From: Fusobacterium paranimalis | GTDB lineage: Bacteria > Fusobacteriota > Fusobacteriia > Fusobacteriales > Fusobacteriaceae | Assembly (NCBI GenBank): GCA_965278035.1 | Contig: OZ256152.1 | Coordinates: 767,389 to 831,388, forward strand | Length of the DNA stretch: 64,000 bases | Direction: 5' to 3' | Part shown: one piece after another, positions 8,233-64,000 of the stretch | Layout of the letters: each line of letters starts with the position of its first letter | How positions within the stretch are numbered: position 1 is the first letter of the stretch | Made by a program: the position numbers and the translations under genes | Notes under the pieces: generated by a model | Databases searched by the model: none | Seen by the model: only the letters and a program-made list of their open reading frames with translations | Told to the model about the DNA's origin: nothing

Positions 8233-9387
8233 ATGAAAAAATTTAATTACTTTACATCAGAATTTGTTTCACCAGGACATCCAGATAAAATTTCAGATCA
8301 AATATCAGATGCAATTTTAGATGCTTGTTTAAAAGATGATCCTAATTCAAGAGTTGCCTGTGAAGTTTTTTGTACTACTGGATTAGTTGTTGTTGGAGGA
8401 GAAATAACAACCTCAACATACATTGATGTACAAGATATAGTTAGAAAAAAAATTGATGAAATTGGTTATAGACCAGGAATGGGATTTGATTCTAACTGTG
8501 GTACTTTAAGCTGTATCCATGCACAATCACCTGATATAGCTATGGGTGTAGATGTTGGAGGTGCAGGAGATCAAGGAATAATGTTTGGAGGTGCTGTTAG
8601 AGAAACAGAAGAACTTATGCCATTAGCACTTGTATTATCAAGAGAAATATTAGTAAAACTTACTAATATGATGAAAAATAAAGAAATTAAATGGGTAAGA
8701 CCAGATCAAAAATCACAAGTTACACTAGCTTATGATGAAAATGGAAAAGTTGACCATGTTGACTCTATTGTTGTATCAGTACAACATGATGAAGATGTTA
8801 GTCACAATGAAATTGAAAAAACAGTTATAGAAAAAGTTGTTAAACCTGTTTTAGAAAAATATAACTTAAGTTCTGATAATATAAAATACTATATAAATCC
8901 TACTGGAAGATTTGTAATTGGAGGACCTCATGGAGATACAGGTGTTACTGGTAGAAAAATTATAGTTGATACTTATGGTGGATATTTTAGACATGGTGGA
9001 GGAGCTTTCTCTGGTAAAGATCCTTCAAAAGTTGATAGATCAGCTGCTTACGCTGCTAGATGGGTAGCAAAAAATATTGTTGCAGCAGAACTTGCTGACA
9101 AATGTGAAATTCAATTATCTTATGCAATAGGAATTCCTAAACCAGTATCAATTAAAGTTGACACTTTTGGAACTTCAAAAGTTGATGAAGATAAAATTTC
9201 AGAAGTTGTATCAAAAGTATTTGATTTATCTCCTAGAGGAATCGAAAAAGCTCTTGAATTAAGAGAAGGAAAATTCAAATACCAAGATTTAGCAGCCTAT
9301 GGTCATATAGGAAGAACTGATATTGATACCCCTTGGGAAAGATTGAACAAAGTTGAAGAATTGATGAAATACATCAATAAATGTTAA
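8233..9387 (+). CDS. metK: S-adenosylmethionine synthetase
   Basis: Classic MetK N-terminus ([25 protein letters not shown]), the [19 protein letters not shown] motif and a 384-aa length. Confidence 0.95.
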
Positions 9388-9437
9388 TTATTTCCTAAAT
9401 AACTTTTTTAAACCTAACACCTCTTATTTATATAAAA

Positions 9438-9482
9438 AAGCCAATTGTAGATTTTTTTTAATTTTACATTTGGCTTTTTTTG
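9438..9482 (+). terminator. Putative rho-independent terminator after metK
   Basis: Imperfect stem aagccaattgta / tacatttggctt followed by a T7 run. The loop is long, so confidence is moderate. Confidence 0.4.
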
Positions 9483-9781
9483 TAAATAATATCCCTCATA
9501 GGTATATTCTTTTACTATTCCCAAAGAATTAAAACCTTTTTTCTTAGAATAGATCTTCATTTTTAATGAGGTTAATTTTATAATATTCATAAAAAATCAT
9601 AAAGAAGGAGGGGAAATTAAATTATTGAAATGAAAATAAAAAATAAGTGAAAACTACATTCTAAATCTTAGTTTAAAAATTTAGCTAGTAATAAACTATT
9701 TTTTACTTCATTTGTAAGTTTACAACAATCCTTCTGTTATATAATTCTTAACTTTGTAGTTAAGAGTTACTATTATTACTT

Positions 9782-59478: not shown

Positions 59479-59973
59479 CTATTTTTTATATACATAAGCT
59501 ACAAATTCTTTATAATCTTTTTTATCTACTATTTTATATCCATAATCTTCAATATTTGGAAAATATAGCGGCTCAACTGCTTTTTTAACTTCTACACTAT
59601 CTTTTATTTTCGAAAGAAAAATTTCATCAATTTCAAAATTATCTAAAAAATATTTATATATACTATATCCTCCAGCAATGAAAATAGTCTTGTTTTGTAA
59701 AGTTAAATCTTCAATTAACTTAGGTATATCCATATTTCTATGAAGAACTATAACTTCTCTATTTTTTTTCATAAGCTCAACAGGAACATATTTTGCGGTA
59801 GTTCCTCCAAATAAAACTGTATTCCCAATAGTTTTACTTTTAAAATAAATAAGCTCTTCTTTTATATGCCATAACATACCATTACTATTTTCATCAGGAG
59901 TTCTATCTCCAATTAGATTATTTTTTTCAACACAAACTATTAACTTTAAGTTTTTATAGTATTTTTTTTCCAT
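59479..59973 (-). CDS. folA: Dihydrofolate reductase
   Basis: 164 aa. Motifs LIVCVEKNNLIG and LWHIKEEL...GNTVLFGGTTA. Confidence 0.85.
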   Translation of the reverse strand: MEKKYYKNLKLIVCVEKNNLIGDRTPDENSNGMLWHIKEELIYFKSKTIGNTVLFGGTTAKYVPVELMKKNREVIVLHRNMDIPKLIEDLTLQNKTIFIAGGYSIYKYFLDNFEIDEIFLSKIKDSVEVKKAVEPLYFPNIEDYGYKIVDKKDYKEFVAYVYKK

Positions 59974-60800
59974 TAAATAGCCACCTCATAGCTAACTTTT
60001 TCTCCATACTTATAATCTAATATTTCTATATCATCAGGTTTAAAATCAAATATTGATTTAAAATTATTTATTTTTATTTTTGCAGGCTCAAATGTTTCTC
60101 TATTAACTTGCTCTATTAATTTATCATAATGTCTATCATAAATGTGCATATTATGAATATTCCAAATTATTTCTGCTGGTTCAAGTTCACATTCAAGTGC
60201 TACTAATTTATGTAAAACTGAATATTGAAATACATTAGCAACTAAGCCCAATGCTACATCACAGCTTCTTTGTCTAACTTCTAAATATAATTTATTCCCA
60301 ATTACTGACCATTGTGTTAAATGTACACAAGGTGTCAATGCCATTTCTGAAAGCTCATTAGGTATCCAAATTTCTGTCATAATTCTTCTGCTATTAGGAT
60401 TATTTTTAAGCTCATTTATAACATAATGAAGTTGAGATTTTTGCCCAAAAGTTTCTTGTGCTATTTGATAGCCATAAGCCTTTCCAATAGTACCATCTTT
60501 CTGTTTCCATTCATCCCAAAATTTACAACCTAATTTATCTAAAACATCTACATTATTTGATTGTAGTATCCATATCCAATATAGTTCTCTTATTGGTGCT
60601 TTACTTGGTGCAAATCTTGAAGTTATTAGATGTGCTTCATCATCTGAGTTATTAAGTCTAAATTGATAACCTATATAGCTTTTATAATGTGCAGCTGTAC
60701 CATCTGCATACTTTGTTCTGACATTTCCTTTACTCCAAATTCCTTTTTCTGCTATTGTATCAACTATATCTTTATATATTTTGTCAAATTTAGCTCCCAT
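59973..60800 (-). CDS. thyA: Thymidylate synthase
   Basis: 275 aa. Conserved active-site region (...LTPCVHLTQW...) and RSCD motif. The stop overlaps the folA start. Confidence 0.9.
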   Translation of the reverse strand: MGAKFDKIYKDIVDTIAEKGIWSKGNVRTKYADGTAAHYKSYIGYQFRLNNSDDEAHLITSRFAPSKAPIRELYWIWILQSNNVDVLDKLGCKFWDEWKQKDGTIGKAYGYQIAQETFGQKSQLHYVINELKNNPNSRRIMTEIWIPNELSEMALTPCVHLTQWSVIGNKLYLEVRQRSCDVALGLVANVFQYSVLHKLVALECELEPAEIIWNIHNMHIYDRHYDKLIEQVNRETFEPAKIKINNFKSIFDFKPDDIEILDYKYGEKVSYEVAI

Positions 60801-60849
60801 TTCTCTTCTCCTATTTTTCCAATTTTATATTATTATACCACATAAGTAT

Positions 60850-61203
60850 CTAAAAATAAGGTAATTTTTGGGAAGTTACTTTGATAGCTAAATACATTAC
60901 ATAGAAATCAACAAACAAAAAGATAAAATTAATTATAAAATTTTTTATATCTATTTTCTTTTTATAGAAATCATAAATTAAAATTATAAAATATATTAAA
61001 GATAATAAAATAGTTGGTATTTTTAGAGAAGTCAGCATAATAAAAGCAAAGAGAAACACTGTTATTTCTAAAATTTTTAATAACCTCACATATTTAAAAT
61101 TTTCTATTTTAAAAAATAATCTTAAAATACAGATTTCAAAAAATGTAAATAATCCCCCTATTGTTACCATCAATATAAGAACTGTAAAAAAGAATGCTAT
61201 CAT
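60850..61203 (-). CDS. Small 4-TM membrane protein, paralog 1 of 5 (tandem array)
   Basis: Shares FE(I/V) in TM1, the KY..LLKILE loop motif and IYDF(Y/W)KKK...FID...MYL with four neighbours. A GAGGTG Shine-Dalgarno sequence is present. Confidence 0.5.
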   Translation of the reverse strand: MIAFFFTVLILMVTIGGLFTFFEICILRLFFKIENFKYVRLLKILEITVFLFAFIMLTSLKIPTILLSLIYFIILIYDFYKKKIDIKNFIINFIFLFVDFYVMYLAIKVTSQKLPYF

Positions 61204-61221
61204 TTTATCACCTCATAATAT

Positions 61222-61593
61222 TTAAATACTTGGAAGATTACTCAAAATTAATATCATTACCAAATACATTAATGCTATGTCAATAAGAAAAAATACAAAA
61301 TTTACCATAATTTCTTTCCTATTATTTTTTTTATAAATAAAATCAACAATAAAATAGAAAAAGCATGAAGGTATAAAAAATATTAAAATAACATAAAAGA
61401 ATTTAAATAGTGAAATTTCAAGAAATAAAAAATTAATTATGACTAAGAAATAAATTATTTCAGCTATTTTTAATAGTATTATATATTTAAAATTTTTTGT
61501 TTTAAACATAGCTTTTAAAATAGATATTTCTAAAATTGTAATCAGTATAACTAATATAAATGGTATTAAAGTAAATTCAATTAAAAAATTCAT
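61222..61593 (-). CDS. Small 4-TM membrane protein, paralog 2 of 5
   Basis: Same family. The ATG at 61593 follows a GAGGAG Shine-Dalgarno sequence. The track start is at GTG 61599. Confidence 0.5.
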   Translation of the reverse strand: MNFLIEFTLIPFILVILITILEISILKAMFKTKNFKYIILLKIAEIIYFLVIINFLFLEISLFKFFYVILIFFIPSCFFYFIVDFIYKKNNRKEIMVNFVFFLIDIALMYLVMILILSNLPSI

Positions 61594-61699
61594 GTCCACT
61601 CCTCTCTAATAGAACAATAGTAATTTAATACATTTTCAAAATAAAACATTATTAACAAAGCCAAAATTATCAACAGAATCTCAATAAAGTATATAATTT

Positions 61700-62077
61700 T
61701 TAAACATATGAACCAAAAAATAAAAAAGCTATATTTAAAGATAAATACATCAATACTACATTGATAAAGAAATATAAAAAATAAATTATAAAATCTTTTT
61801 TAGTAATTTTCTTTTTCCAAAAATCATATATTAAAATTCCAAAGTATATCATTATGAAAAGTGAATAAATCAAATAAGAAAAAACTTTTGTCCCTATATG
61901 TAAATAAAAATCTATTGAAATAATTATTAAAATAACATAAAATAACTCTAAAAATTTTAATAATTTTATATATTTAAAAGTACTGGCTTTCATACTATTA
62001 ATAACAATTACTTCAAAAATAGTCAATATAGCCCAAAAAATAAATAATTTTAAAAATAAAAAAACTAAAATATTCAT
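61700..62077 (-). CDS. Small 4-TM membrane protein, paralog 3 of 5
   Basis: Same family. A GGGGG Shine-Dalgarno sequence precedes the ATG. Confidence 0.5.
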   Translation of the reverse strand: MNILVFLFLKLFIFWAILTIFEVIVINSMKASTFKYIKLLKFLELFYVILIIISIDFYLHIGTKVFSYLIYSLFIMIYFGILIYDFWKKKITKKDFIIYFLYFFINVVLMYLSLNIAFLFFGSYV

Positions 62078-62164
62078 TAATCCCCCTTGTTACTAAAATC
62101 CCAAAATTATTTGAGCATTTACTAATATAGATAAAAACATAACTGTTTTTTACCTCATATATAT

Positions 62165-62503
62165 TTAAACACTTGGAAATCCACTAAAAATTAATAATAT
62201 TGTAAAAATTATTAATAATATATCAATAAAATAAAATAATGAATTAATTATAAGTTCTTCTTTACTTATAATTTTTTTCTTAAAATCAGAGATTAAAACT
62301 AAAAAATATATAAAAGTTAAAGCAACAAATAAATTTTTATCAATAAATATCATCAAAAAGAATAAAATCTCTAAAATTTTTAGTAACTTCATATATTTAT
62401 TAGACTTTACATCAAAGAATATTTTTATTAAAGCTACTTCAAAAATTGAAAATATCCCTGATATAACAAGAAATAAAAAAATAAGTCCAAATAATAAATC
62501 CAT
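62165..62503 (-). CDS. Small 4-TM membrane protein, paralog 4 of 5
   Basis: Same family. A GGGAG Shine-Dalgarno sequence is present. Confidence 0.5.
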   Translation of the reverse strand: MDLLFGLIFLFLVISGIFSIFEVALIKIFFDVKSNKYMKLLKILEILFFLMIFIDKNLFVALTFIYFLVLISDFKKKIISKEELIINSLFYFIDILLIIFTILLIFSGFPSV

Positions 62504-62658
62504 ATTTACTCCCTATTACTATAACAATATTAATTTATATAGTTAAAAACATTCCCTCTTATTCTGTTCATAATAATTATTTCAAAAAAGATTAATATAC
62601 TCTAAAAGAAGAATAATATTAATAAAAATCCTAAAATATTCATTTATTCTCTTATCTT

Positions 62659-63024
62659 TTAGATTGGAAAAATCAATAATATGCTTACAATCACTAAGCT
62701 AATATCTATGAAACAAAGCATACAGTTTACTATAAATTCTCTTATATTTATCTTTTTTCTGAAAAACTCAATAATCAAGATTATAATATATAAAAAACAT
62801 AAAAAACAAAACACTGGAAATACTGTTTTGAGTATTTGTCTAGGTCCACTTGCAATAATTAGAGTGACAAAAGGTGTCATAACTTCTAATACTCTTAATA
62901 ATATTACATATTTTGTATTTTTTAATTCTAAGACTTCCTTAATAATAGATATTTCAAAAATAGTAAACCATATAGCTGAAACAAATAAGAACACAAAAAA
63001 TGCTAAGAAAGATAATGGTGACAT
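62659..63024 (-). CDS. Small 4-TM membrane protein, paralog 5 of 5
   Basis: Same family. The internal ATG at 63024 has an AAGGAG Shine-Dalgarno sequence and gives 121 aa like the others. The track start is at 63060. Confidence 0.45.
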   Translation of the reverse strand: MSPLSFLAFFVFLFVSAIWFTIFEISIIKEVLELKNTKYVILLRVLEVMTPFVTLIIASGPRQILKTVFPVFCFLCFLYIIILIIEFFRKKINIREFIVNCMLCFIDISLVIVSILLIFPI

Positions 63025-63357
63025 CTCTTCTCCTTTCAAATTAATTATAAAAGTACTCATAATCTTTAAAGCCTTAAAGTAAATAGAAAACTAAATCTCC
63101 CACAATTAGGTACTTCTTCATTTTAACAAATTAAGGAGCTCTGTCAAGTGTTGTGAGGCTCTAAAATCTTTAAAAATATTCAAAAATTTTCTAAGAAGTT
63201 TGGTGGTTTACACAATTTTCTTTGACATATAGTATATCATATTTTTTTCTATGAAATTATAAGAAAAAATAATTGAATAAAAATAAAAAAGACTAATATA
63301 GAAAAATTAAATTTTCATATATTAATCTTTTCTTTAAAAATTAATTATGCACTAGTC

Positions 63358-64000
63358 TTAGAATATAACTCTAAGTCCTAAACCTCCTCTTAGGTTTTCT
63401 CCCTTAGTATCATACCCTACATTTGCAGTTACCCCAACTCTTGTGTTATCTAATCCAACGTTTAAGTCAAATTTTACATTGCCTTTTCTGTCTTCTTTTT
63501 CTCCTCTTATATTAAAGTAATCTGCTGTTGTATCTACTACTCTTGCTTTATTCTTTCCTTTTGCTACTCTTCCTAGCTCATTTTCATAAGCTACCCCTAA
63601 TGTTGTTCTTAATGCTTTCATTCCAAAGTAGTGTTTGAAACCTAGTTCTGCCCCTATTTCTGGTTTTACTGAGAAATAATGATTTTGTTTTACTTCTAAT
63701 TTTATTTCTCCTGATTTTTCTCTTATCTTACTTACTCTTCCATATTCTAGTTTTAATGCTGCATAAGGTCTTAATGTGAAGCCTTCACTTAATCTGAATT
63801 CTTTTCCTATTTCATTTTTAACCCCTATTCCATAAGTATAGTATCTTGATTTTGCATTAAAGATATCATCTACTACTAAGAATTTTCTATGCATTCTGTT
63901 ACGTCCTACAAAGATATCTCCTGATATTGTCCAATTCAAGCTATTATTATCATCAAATGGCACTGATTTTAATAACCCTACTTTCGCTTGTAACATTTGT
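63358..64000 (-). CDS. C-terminal part of an autotransporter-type outer-membrane beta-barrel protein (N-terminus beyond the window end)
   Basis: Amphipathic beta-strands ending ...RGGLGLRVIF with a terminal aromatic residue. The ORF is open at the window edge. Confidence 0.45.
   Translation of the reverse strand, partial: QMLQAKVGLLKSVPFDDNNSLNWTISGDIFVGRNRMHRKFLVVDDIFNAKSRYYTYGIGVKNEIGKEFRLSEGFTLRPYAALKLEYGRVSKIREKSGEIKLEVKQNHYFSVKPEIGAELGFKHYFGMKALRTTLGVAYENELGRVAKGKNKARVVDTTADYFNIRGEKEDRKGNVKFDLNVGLDNTRVGVTANVGYDTKGENLRGGLGLRVIF

Follow-up and report, generated by a model that had tools for sequence, protein, structure and literature searches.

What kind of system is a tandem array of small membrane proteins that is kept at one chromosomal site, beside housekeeping genes, with a content that changes from strain to strain? 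The question is raised by a 64,000-nucleotide (nt) stretch of the Fusobacterium paranimalis genome (assembly GCA_965278035.1, contig OZ256152.1, positions 767,389 to 831,388 of the forward strand), referred to below as the window, which carries five consecutive minus-strand genes for related membrane proteins directly upstream of thyA. An earlier note on this DNA had described them as a diversifying array and had considered a toxin-immunity relationship with the adjacent autotransporter gene. For the present analysis, ~100 related loci from genomes and metagenomes were scanned with a hidden Markov model (HMM) of the family and with markers for thyA, folA, and the autotransporter beta-domain. 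Three long-read metagenome loci (L075, L076, and L079; loci are cited by such numbers) were left out because even thyA is riddled with frameshifts there. Comparison of these sequences securely identifies the locus as a birth-and-death tandem array, anchored at thyA, whose strain-specific repertoires are attributed to duplication, deletion, decay, and recombinational exchange of cassettes. The function favored here, protection of the immunity type, is tentative.

The number of full-length copies varies from 1 to 7 among 32 distinct complete arrays: a single array has 1 copy, three have 2, six have 3, six have 4, nine have 5, four have 6, and three have 7. One incomplete contig (L049) contains 8. 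The copy-number survey across strains that the earlier note had proposed thus gives a count that is not fixed (1 to 8) and differs even within species. At 70% identity, the 259 distinct copies fall into 26 subtypes. Their order is mostly kept, (H/G/D)-C-F-(B/E)-A-thyA, and the content varies; fragments and frameshifted copies are common across the loci. Replacement of a single cassette can be seen in two F. animalis chromosomes, CP084118 and CP084150 (L009 and L010), whose flanks and outer copies are 98 to 100% identical but which share only 47 to 80% identity in one slot, where subtype E is found in place of B, with the breakpoints located within family genes. This mosaic is clearer than the outcome of a test for shuffling of N-terminal and C-terminal halves among the subtypes, which gave modest evidence only. 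With its ~26 subtypes, pseudogene remnants, and cassette replacement, the locus bears out its earlier description as a diversifying array, and its copy number is variable. As a separate observation, the thyA-proximal copy of F. vincentii locus L024 is split by a frameshift (positions 9356-9475 and 9460-9690).

The array occupies a single site. In a complete F. vincentii chromosome of 2.1 Mb, a tblastn search with one paralogue (E < 0.01) hits nothing but the three copies of its array. In every locus that reaches far enough downstream, the array is directly followed by thyA-folA on the same strand; in the window, this order continues as thyA, folA, trkA, cca, copZ, and copA, all on that strand. 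The extended -10 element of the thyA promoter is kept as TG(G/A)TATAAT in every related locus aligned. In L004 and L020, subtype A is internally deleted, yet its 3' end with the last codons is retained beside this promoter, which suggests that the thyA promoter region constrains the end of the array.

Four hydrophobic segments are seen in the hydropathy profile of each paralogue, and an AlphaFold2 model (23 family members) has helices at residues 2-31, 37-56, 61-80, and 86-112, with a predicted local distance difference test score (pLDDT) of 83 and a predicted template modeling score (pTM) of 0.70. Both support the earlier description of the family as four-helix transmembrane proteins, predicted to reside in the inner membrane. 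Nearly all Lys and Arg residues are located in loops 1 and 3; by the positive-inside rule, these loops would be cytoplasmic, with both termini and loop 2 on the periplasmic side. A weighted conservation profile of 230 distinct family members reveals four conserved blocks: T20-x-F22-E23 in helix 1, with an invariant Glu23; K37-Y38-x-K-L41-L42-K43-x-L-E46; Y71-F72-x-I-L75-I76-x-D78-F79-x-K-K82-K83-I84; and F97-x-D99. Four acidic residues, Glu23, Glu46, Asp78, and Asp99, are thus conserved in predicted positions within or beside the membrane. Conservation gathers on the lysine-rich, presumably cytoplasmic half of the protein, and the opposite half is hypervariable. The most variable parts are the first half of helix 1, the region from the end of helix 2 to the start of helix 3, where all insertions and deletions fall, and the end of helix 4.

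The ratio of nonsynonymous to synonymous substitution rates (dN/dS) reflects the same division. Compared with their orthologues, the array genes show values of 0.25 to 0.76, with 0.25 to 0.37 for copy 5 (subtype A), against 0.06 to 0.10 for thyA, folA, and trkA at similar dS (up to 0.17 for the truncated folA of L004). Judged by these rates, the array genes are functional and constrained, four to eight times less than their neighbors. Pooled within subtypes, dN/dS is 0.29 in the conserved half and 0.51 in the variable half, which places the looser constraint in the half presumed to be periplasmic. Because they are under purifying selection (dN/dS < 1) and intact across species, the array genes are real genes and not an artifact of AT-rich DNA.

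As single proteins, the paralogues have no match in Pfam, NCBIfam, PADLOC, or PHROGs, and Pfam searches with 23 members at E values up to 10 return nothing but sub-threshold compositional matches, such as TssN (E = 0.0056, in 2 of the 23). Profile searches against PDB sequences find no relative. These results agree with the earlier statement that the family fits no named domain, and the profile searches suggested at that time match neither a housekeeping family nor any other known one. A word-indexed search yields 1991 relatives, and all those with a named source are hypothetical proteins of Fusobacterium; an exhaustive HMMER scan of 1.84 billion representatives at 50% identity yields only 39 clusters. 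The named sources are F. animalis, F. polymorphum, F. vincentii, F. canifelinum, oral taxon 370, and oral taxon C10, and the array locus is found in all sampled members of the F. nucleatum complex. By these searches, the proteins form an undescribed family that is confined to this complex.

Several candidate identities and origins were rejected. None of the 23 members matches the SMR family (PF00893) at E values up to 10, and hhalign assigns a probability of 0.14% to a relationship with EmrE. Copy 3 is labeled "NADH dehydrogenase" in the record of strain NCTC15132 (CAN2326009.1); no Nuo or ND model in Pfam or NCBIfam matches it, and the label looks like a spurious automatic one. A mobile-element origin was also rejected, as there is no match in phage genomes or viral contigs and the single "plasmid" match is a mislabeled chromosome. 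The record in question, L024 (NZ_CP084075.1, positions 577275-595568), is the 2.1-Mb chromosome of F. vincentii SB055, filed as "plasmid pSB055A".

In the window, the five minus-strand genes described in the earlier note are present as open reading frames (ORFs), each with its own Shine-Dalgarno motif as read from the sequence, and a single family HMM matches all of them (E values of 1e-29 to 1e-38); a scan of all 64 kb with this model reveals no further significant copy. The coordinates are given in the table below. The paralogues can be aligned over their full length, with pairwise identities of 31 to 37%, and nine residues are invariant in the five-copy alignment (E23, K37, Y38, L41, L42, E46, I76, F79, and K82). 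The signatures IFEI/IFEV/ILEI, K.KNFKY..LLKILE, and IYDF.KKKI..K.FI.N..F.FID, which had been noticed before, are all found. The earlier lengths (112 to 125 aa) stand as well, and the spacing of 18 to 300 nt has to be narrowed to 18 to 155 nt: from copy 1 to copy 5, the spacers measure 155, 87, 106, and 18 nt, and ~300 nt is the gap to the autotransporter gene. The five genes had been taken to extend to position 63060; the most likely start of copy 1 is ATG 63024, which gives 121 aa, because a GGAG Shine-Dalgarno sequence is found there and is kept in L004, L016, and L020, whereas ATG 63060, the start of a less favored 133-aa version, has none. The 121-aa form is on record as CAN2326011.1 ("Integral membrane protein"). 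Copy 4 begins at its ATG and not at GTG 61599, and public gene calls likewise give 123 aa; its slot, occupied here by subtype E, is held by subtype B in other strains. Copy 5, the closest to thyA, represents the near-universal and best-conserved subtype and is identical to CAN2326007.1 ("hypothetical protein NCTC15132_03830" of Fusobacterium sp. oral taxon C10 NCTC15132). Exact protein matches of this kind assign the window to that strain.

Features of the thyA-linked array and its surroundings (window positions unless a locus is given)
Feature	Position	Strand	Remarks
thyA	59973..60800	-	PF00303 in public gene calls; downstream anchor, not a family member
Extended -10 element (TGGTATAAT) of the thyA promoter	60832..60840	-	49-nt spacer after copy 5
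Copy 5, subtype A, 117 aa	60850..61203	-	ORF; family HMM 1e-33
Copy 4, subtype E, 123 aa	61222..61593	-	ATG 61593; 18 nt from copy 5
Copy 3, subtype B, 125 aa	61700..62077	-	ORF and family HMM; helix 2-3 loop is longer
Copy 2, subtype C, 112 aa	62165..62503	-	ORF and family HMM
Decayed 5' fragment of a sixth copy	62533..62643	-	Inside the 155-nt spacer upstream of copy 2
Copy 1, subtype D, 121 aa	62659..63024	-	ATG 63024; family HMM
Candidate sigma-70 promoter of the array	63120..63147	-	TTGACA, 16 nt, TAAAAT, preceded by TG; consensus match only
Autotransporter beta-domain gene	63358..64000	-	PF03797, 3.5e-26; incomplete at the window end; outside the system
orf49 (49-aa ORF upstream of other arrays), examples	L017 7275-7424; L016 8543-8692; L021 1249-1398	array strand	Outside the window

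The spacer between copies 1 and 2 contains the remains of a sixth copy. This fragment retains a start codon, is interrupted by a stop at codon 14 and then by a frame shift, and does not extend beyond helix 1; in the shifted frame, LIFFEIIIMN corresponds to helix 1 with the family Glu. DNA repeats D4 and D5 relate the fragment, in register, to the 5' ends of copies 1 and 3. The family HMM aligns its positions 17-38 to the fragment with an E value of 1.1, which is not significant alone. In other lineages, subtypes D and C are found ~15 to 30 nt apart, compared with 155 nt in the window. The candidate promoter ahead of copy 1 has 11 of 12 consensus matches and is the best promoter-like site in the region; no terminator-like sites were found between positions 59900 and 63500 and no Rfam families between 59400 and 64000.

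A 133-aa ORF on the plus strand (window positions 62681-63082) mirrors copy 1 and has counterparts in L006 (322-723), L007 (1046-1447), and L028 (416-817). Some public gene calls annotate this antisense ORF in place of the copy 1 gene; where the two overlap, the HMM backs only the reading on the array strand. The G+C content is 17 to 18% over window positions 61000-62500, against 25 to 31% in the flanking genes. This low value is largely explained by the composition of membrane proteins rich in Phe, Ile, Leu, Lys, Asn, and Tyr, and would also fit foreign or fast-evolving DNA.

Upstream of the array, the neighborhood is much less constant. The commonest layout consists of a DDAH-like gene on the minus strand, followed by a 49-aa ORF (orf49) and then the array. 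Insertions seen in this region include PDDEXK_9/AAA-ATPase-like genes, IS605 tnpB, a Y1 transposase, an HXXEE membrane protein, lipoprotein genes, and a DUF1963 fragment; PDDEXK_9 or HXXEE, where found, sits between orf49 and the array. In some loci, sulfite-reductase-like or unrelated genes are found upstream instead. Tandem paralogous lipoprotein genes (226 and 244 aa) are located between the DDAH-like gene and the array in L016 (6445-7900) and also in the upstream regions of L054, L056, L058, and L081; their products have a lipobox and a C-terminal transmembrane helix and match no family. The orf49 product has the pattern MLK[KR], ~16 hydrophobic residues, and then ETLKIS..N.VS[KR][QE]..S.S[VI]E[KR]. 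It comes in two allele types, and its signal-like N terminus resembles those of the neighboring lipoproteins but has no lipobox Cys. It may encode a small peptide that is secreted or sits in the membrane, or it may be the stable remnant of a gene.

The reading favored here, with a probability of roughly 0.35, is that the paralogues are protective, immunity-type membrane proteins. It is prompted by the homogeneous tandem paralogues, their presence or absence within species, and the single hypervariable face, all of which match published immunity strings and polyimmunity loci. Each paralogue would protect against one variant of a membrane-inserting antagonist, which might be a bacteriocin that forms pores, a toxin delivered by contact, or perhaps some component of a phage. 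The variable, periplasm-proximal half would recognize the antagonist variant, the conserved, cytoplasm-proximal acidic and lysine core might serve as a common scaffold or partner site, and the subtype set of a strain would define its range of protection; the adjacent autotransporter would not be the partner. A more specific form of this proposal, possible but still more tentative, is a toxin-unlinked "immunity library", in which each subtype neutralizes one variant of a membrane-inserting toxin circulating in the F. nucleatum complex, with toxins delivered by type V secretion systems (T5SS) or small peptides such as orf49 as candidates.

The proposed immunity function derives from the evolutionary pattern only, because no toxin was recognized among the upstream neighbors examined and no known immunity family matches the proteins, and a series of observations weighs against it. 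The upstream neighbors examined in ~100 loci include no recognized gene for a toxin, a bacteriocin precursor, a C39/ABC exporter, TpsA/CdiA, or any other means of delivery. Described immunity families give no match above noise in Pfam, NCBIfam, or PADLOC and no relative among PDB sequences or folds; fold searches return generic helical and four-helix bundles only, with no match of note among viral predicted structures. No family member is found in phage genomes or viral contigs, and the sole match in plasmid collections is the misfiled F. vincentii chromosome. Averaged dN/dS is below 1 in both halves, and pervasive positive selection is not demonstrated. Subtype A, near-universal and fairly conserved, is compatible with a core function. 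Literature searches found nothing on this locus and no expression or phenotype data. The immunity-island pattern proposed in the earlier note is therefore retained as far as the diversifying array is concerned, but the toxin or secretion partner was not found among the neighbors and no immunity family is matched. That note had also named three findings that would speak against it: an absence of association with toxin or secretion genes, which is what the loci show, and a housekeeping family and a fixed copy number, neither of which was observed.

Some of these observations would also fit redundant, lineage-specific envelope proteins, such as a small channel or carrier for cations or solutes, or a membrane-stress factor relying on the conserved intramembrane acidic residues. 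Such proteins would be duplicated and lost neutrally under relaxed constraint, in copy number and in sequence, and would have no role in conflict. The four conserved acidic residues in or next to the membrane, the fixed site beside housekeeping genes, the lack of a linked toxin, dN/dS values below 1 throughout, and the almost universal subtype A are all in its favor. A housekeeping role, however, sits oddly with 1 to 8 copies, 26 subtypes, and slot replacement between near-identical genomes; the proteins are unlike any transporter family (see the hhalign comparison with EmrE above), and variability on one face suggests ligand-specific diversification. This explanation is rated as somewhat less likely than protection. 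A different kind of conflict would be involved if the paralogues were inner-membrane phage-exclusion or abortive-infection proteins, each variant blocking genome entry of a different Fusobacterium phage or triggering membrane collapse in response to it. In favor of this are the strain-dependent repertoires, a variable face predicted to be periplasmic, and the plasticity zone upstream, which contains genes for IS605 TnpB and a Y1 transposase as well as PDDEXK_9/AAA-ATPase-like ones. However, PADLOC and PHROG searches return no match, phage genomes and viral contigs contain no homologue, and viral predicted structures give no significant match. Known phage-exclusion proteins are, moreover, usually encoded by single prophage genes and not by chromosomal arrays, and this function is considered unlikely.

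Two further explanations tie the array to an upstream gene. A pairing with orf49, as a small Sec-type or membrane-anchored cationic peptide (a toxin, signal, or partner subunit) comparable to Sec-dependent bacteriocins with their immunity genes, draws on the position of orf49: where a locus reaches far enough upstream, this ORF mostly precedes the array by 100 to 450 nt on the same strand, and mobile genes, if there are any, are inserted between the two. Its stable length of 48 to 51 aa, dN/dS of 0.2 to 0.5, and net charge of +2 to +4 in the tail past the hydrophobic segment point the same way. However, orf49 is absent from the window, L055, and L039, where the arrays persist; its N terminus looks like a truncated copy of the neighboring lipoprotein genes, its hydrophobic moment is modest (0.26 to 0.30), and family searches find no match for it. 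A hairpin and then a separate promoter lie between orf49 and the array, and no exporter, as would be needed in an outer-membrane bacterium, was recognized among the neighbors. The pairing is accordingly rated as quite improbable. The suggestion that the five proteins provide immunity to a toxic passenger of the upstream autotransporter fares worse still and is very hard to maintain. The beta-barrel gene running past the window end is confirmed by its PF03797 match, and in the window it ends ~300 to 330 nt upstream of the array on the same strand. An autotransporter beta-domain in this position, though, is found only in the window, L007, and L025 to L028, all of one lineage, and PDDEXK_9 remnants separate it from the array in L025. 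The same subtypes occur without an autotransporter nearby in F. animalis, F. polymorphum, F. vincentii, and oral taxon 370, where, as in most metagenome loci, the upstream neighbor differs and the constant one is thyA. The array also has a promoter-like site of its own, and the beta-domain resembles the C terminus of the adhesin RadD (NF049908, 89.5 bits; cut-off, 3500). Because the adjacency is limited to one lineage and remnants intervene in L025, it is, on comparison of the loci, ascribed to a rearrangement of the plasticity zone in that lineage and not to a functional pairing, so that the toxin-immunity link to this gene that the earlier note had considered is not supported.

Some details of this upstream boundary were recorded separately. 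In L025, a close relative of the window strain, positions 852-1395 contain two PDDEXK_9/AAA-ATPase-like gene fragments, and the window has lost ~490 nt between the autotransporter gene and the array relative to this locus. All public homologues of the beta-domain that were retrieved are partial, with no more than 371 aa, and metagenome contigs break at the autotransporter gene. Almost all of these homologues (P0226 to P0345) are partial proteins with recurring lengths of 178, 212, 316, and 357 aa that start at an internal Met. This pattern suggests assembly breaks or truncated remnants at a repeated autotransporter family.

Both the family and the locus appear to be undescribed. The organization, a variable tandem array of membrane proteins, is known from immunity loci; here it appears unlinked to a toxin and fixed beside a housekeeping gene. 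The species of the F. nucleatum complex are prominent oral and tumor-associated bacteria, and literature searches found nothing on strain competition or exclusion in this complex through such a locus. The array is among the most variable stretches beside strongly conserved housekeeping genes and, because thyA anchors it, would be a useful high-resolution locus for strain typing in metagenomes. If its products are protective, it would provide a compact, easily typed marker of strain compatibility and a lead toward the toxins or phages that match it. Should the "immunity library" be real, it would offer a first genetic handle on strain-level antagonism and kin discrimination in a cancer-associated oral pathobiont. 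If the proteins are not protective, the locus is still a clear example of birth-and-death evolution in a lineage-specific membrane-protein family.

Among known systems, the SMR transporters resemble the array proteins in size (~110 to 125 aa), in their four transmembrane helices, and in a conserved Glu in helix 1, which is a resemblance only. In the array proteins, this Glu lies toward the lysine-rich end of helix 1, the charge bias is the same in every paralogue, and the long conserved loop K.KNFKY..LLKILE has no SMR counterpart. The locus can also be compared with class II bacteriocin loci: orf49 has a signal-like N terminus and is present in most other strains, though not in the window, but it looks like a truncated lipoprotein gene, and no exporter was recognized among the neighbors examined. 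Immunity proteins for pore-forming colicins have 3 or 4 transmembrane helices and ~100 to 180 aa, reside in the inner membrane, and are encoded by single plasmid genes next to colicin and lysis genes. They are similar to the array proteins in size class, in having several transmembrane helices, in the (predicted) inner-membrane location, and in a presumed recognition of toxin helices within the membrane. The array differs in being chromosomal, with no colicin-like gene there and no Pfam match.

The closest parallels in organization are arrays of immunity genes. Polyimmunity loci and transmembrane immunity proteins have been cataloged by Zhang et al. (2012, PMC3482391), who name fusobacteria among the organisms that carry T5SS-type polymorphic toxins and Imm17. 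Many of these loci mix families, whereas the thyA array is homogeneous; Imm-CdiI and Imm17 have two transmembrane helices and other motifs, and no Pfam immunity model matches the array proteins. They are alike in that arrays of immunity genes can stand without a toxin and in that Imm-CdiI and Imm17 are small transmembrane proteins thought to act at the membrane. The immunity strings of type VII secretion systems (T7SS), EsaG, TipC, and TsaI, consist of tandem, nonidentical paralogues that evolve by recombination (PMC9484751; bioRxiv 10.1101/443630), and TsaI is a polytopic membrane protein that neutralizes the depolarizing toxin TspA (PMC9484751). These strings adjoin a toxin gene and use a known secretion system, neither of which was recognized in linkage with the array, and they share no sequence similarity with it. 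The organism considered here is Gram-negative and is not known to have a T7SS. Like the T7SS strings, however, the thyA-linked array combines tandem, nonidentical paralogues of a small protein with a copy number that varies among strains and with conserved blocks that permit expansion, deletion, and swapping by recombination, as in the two F. animalis chromosomes, and TsaI provides a precedent for a membrane protein that serves as the immunity factor against a membrane-acting toxin.

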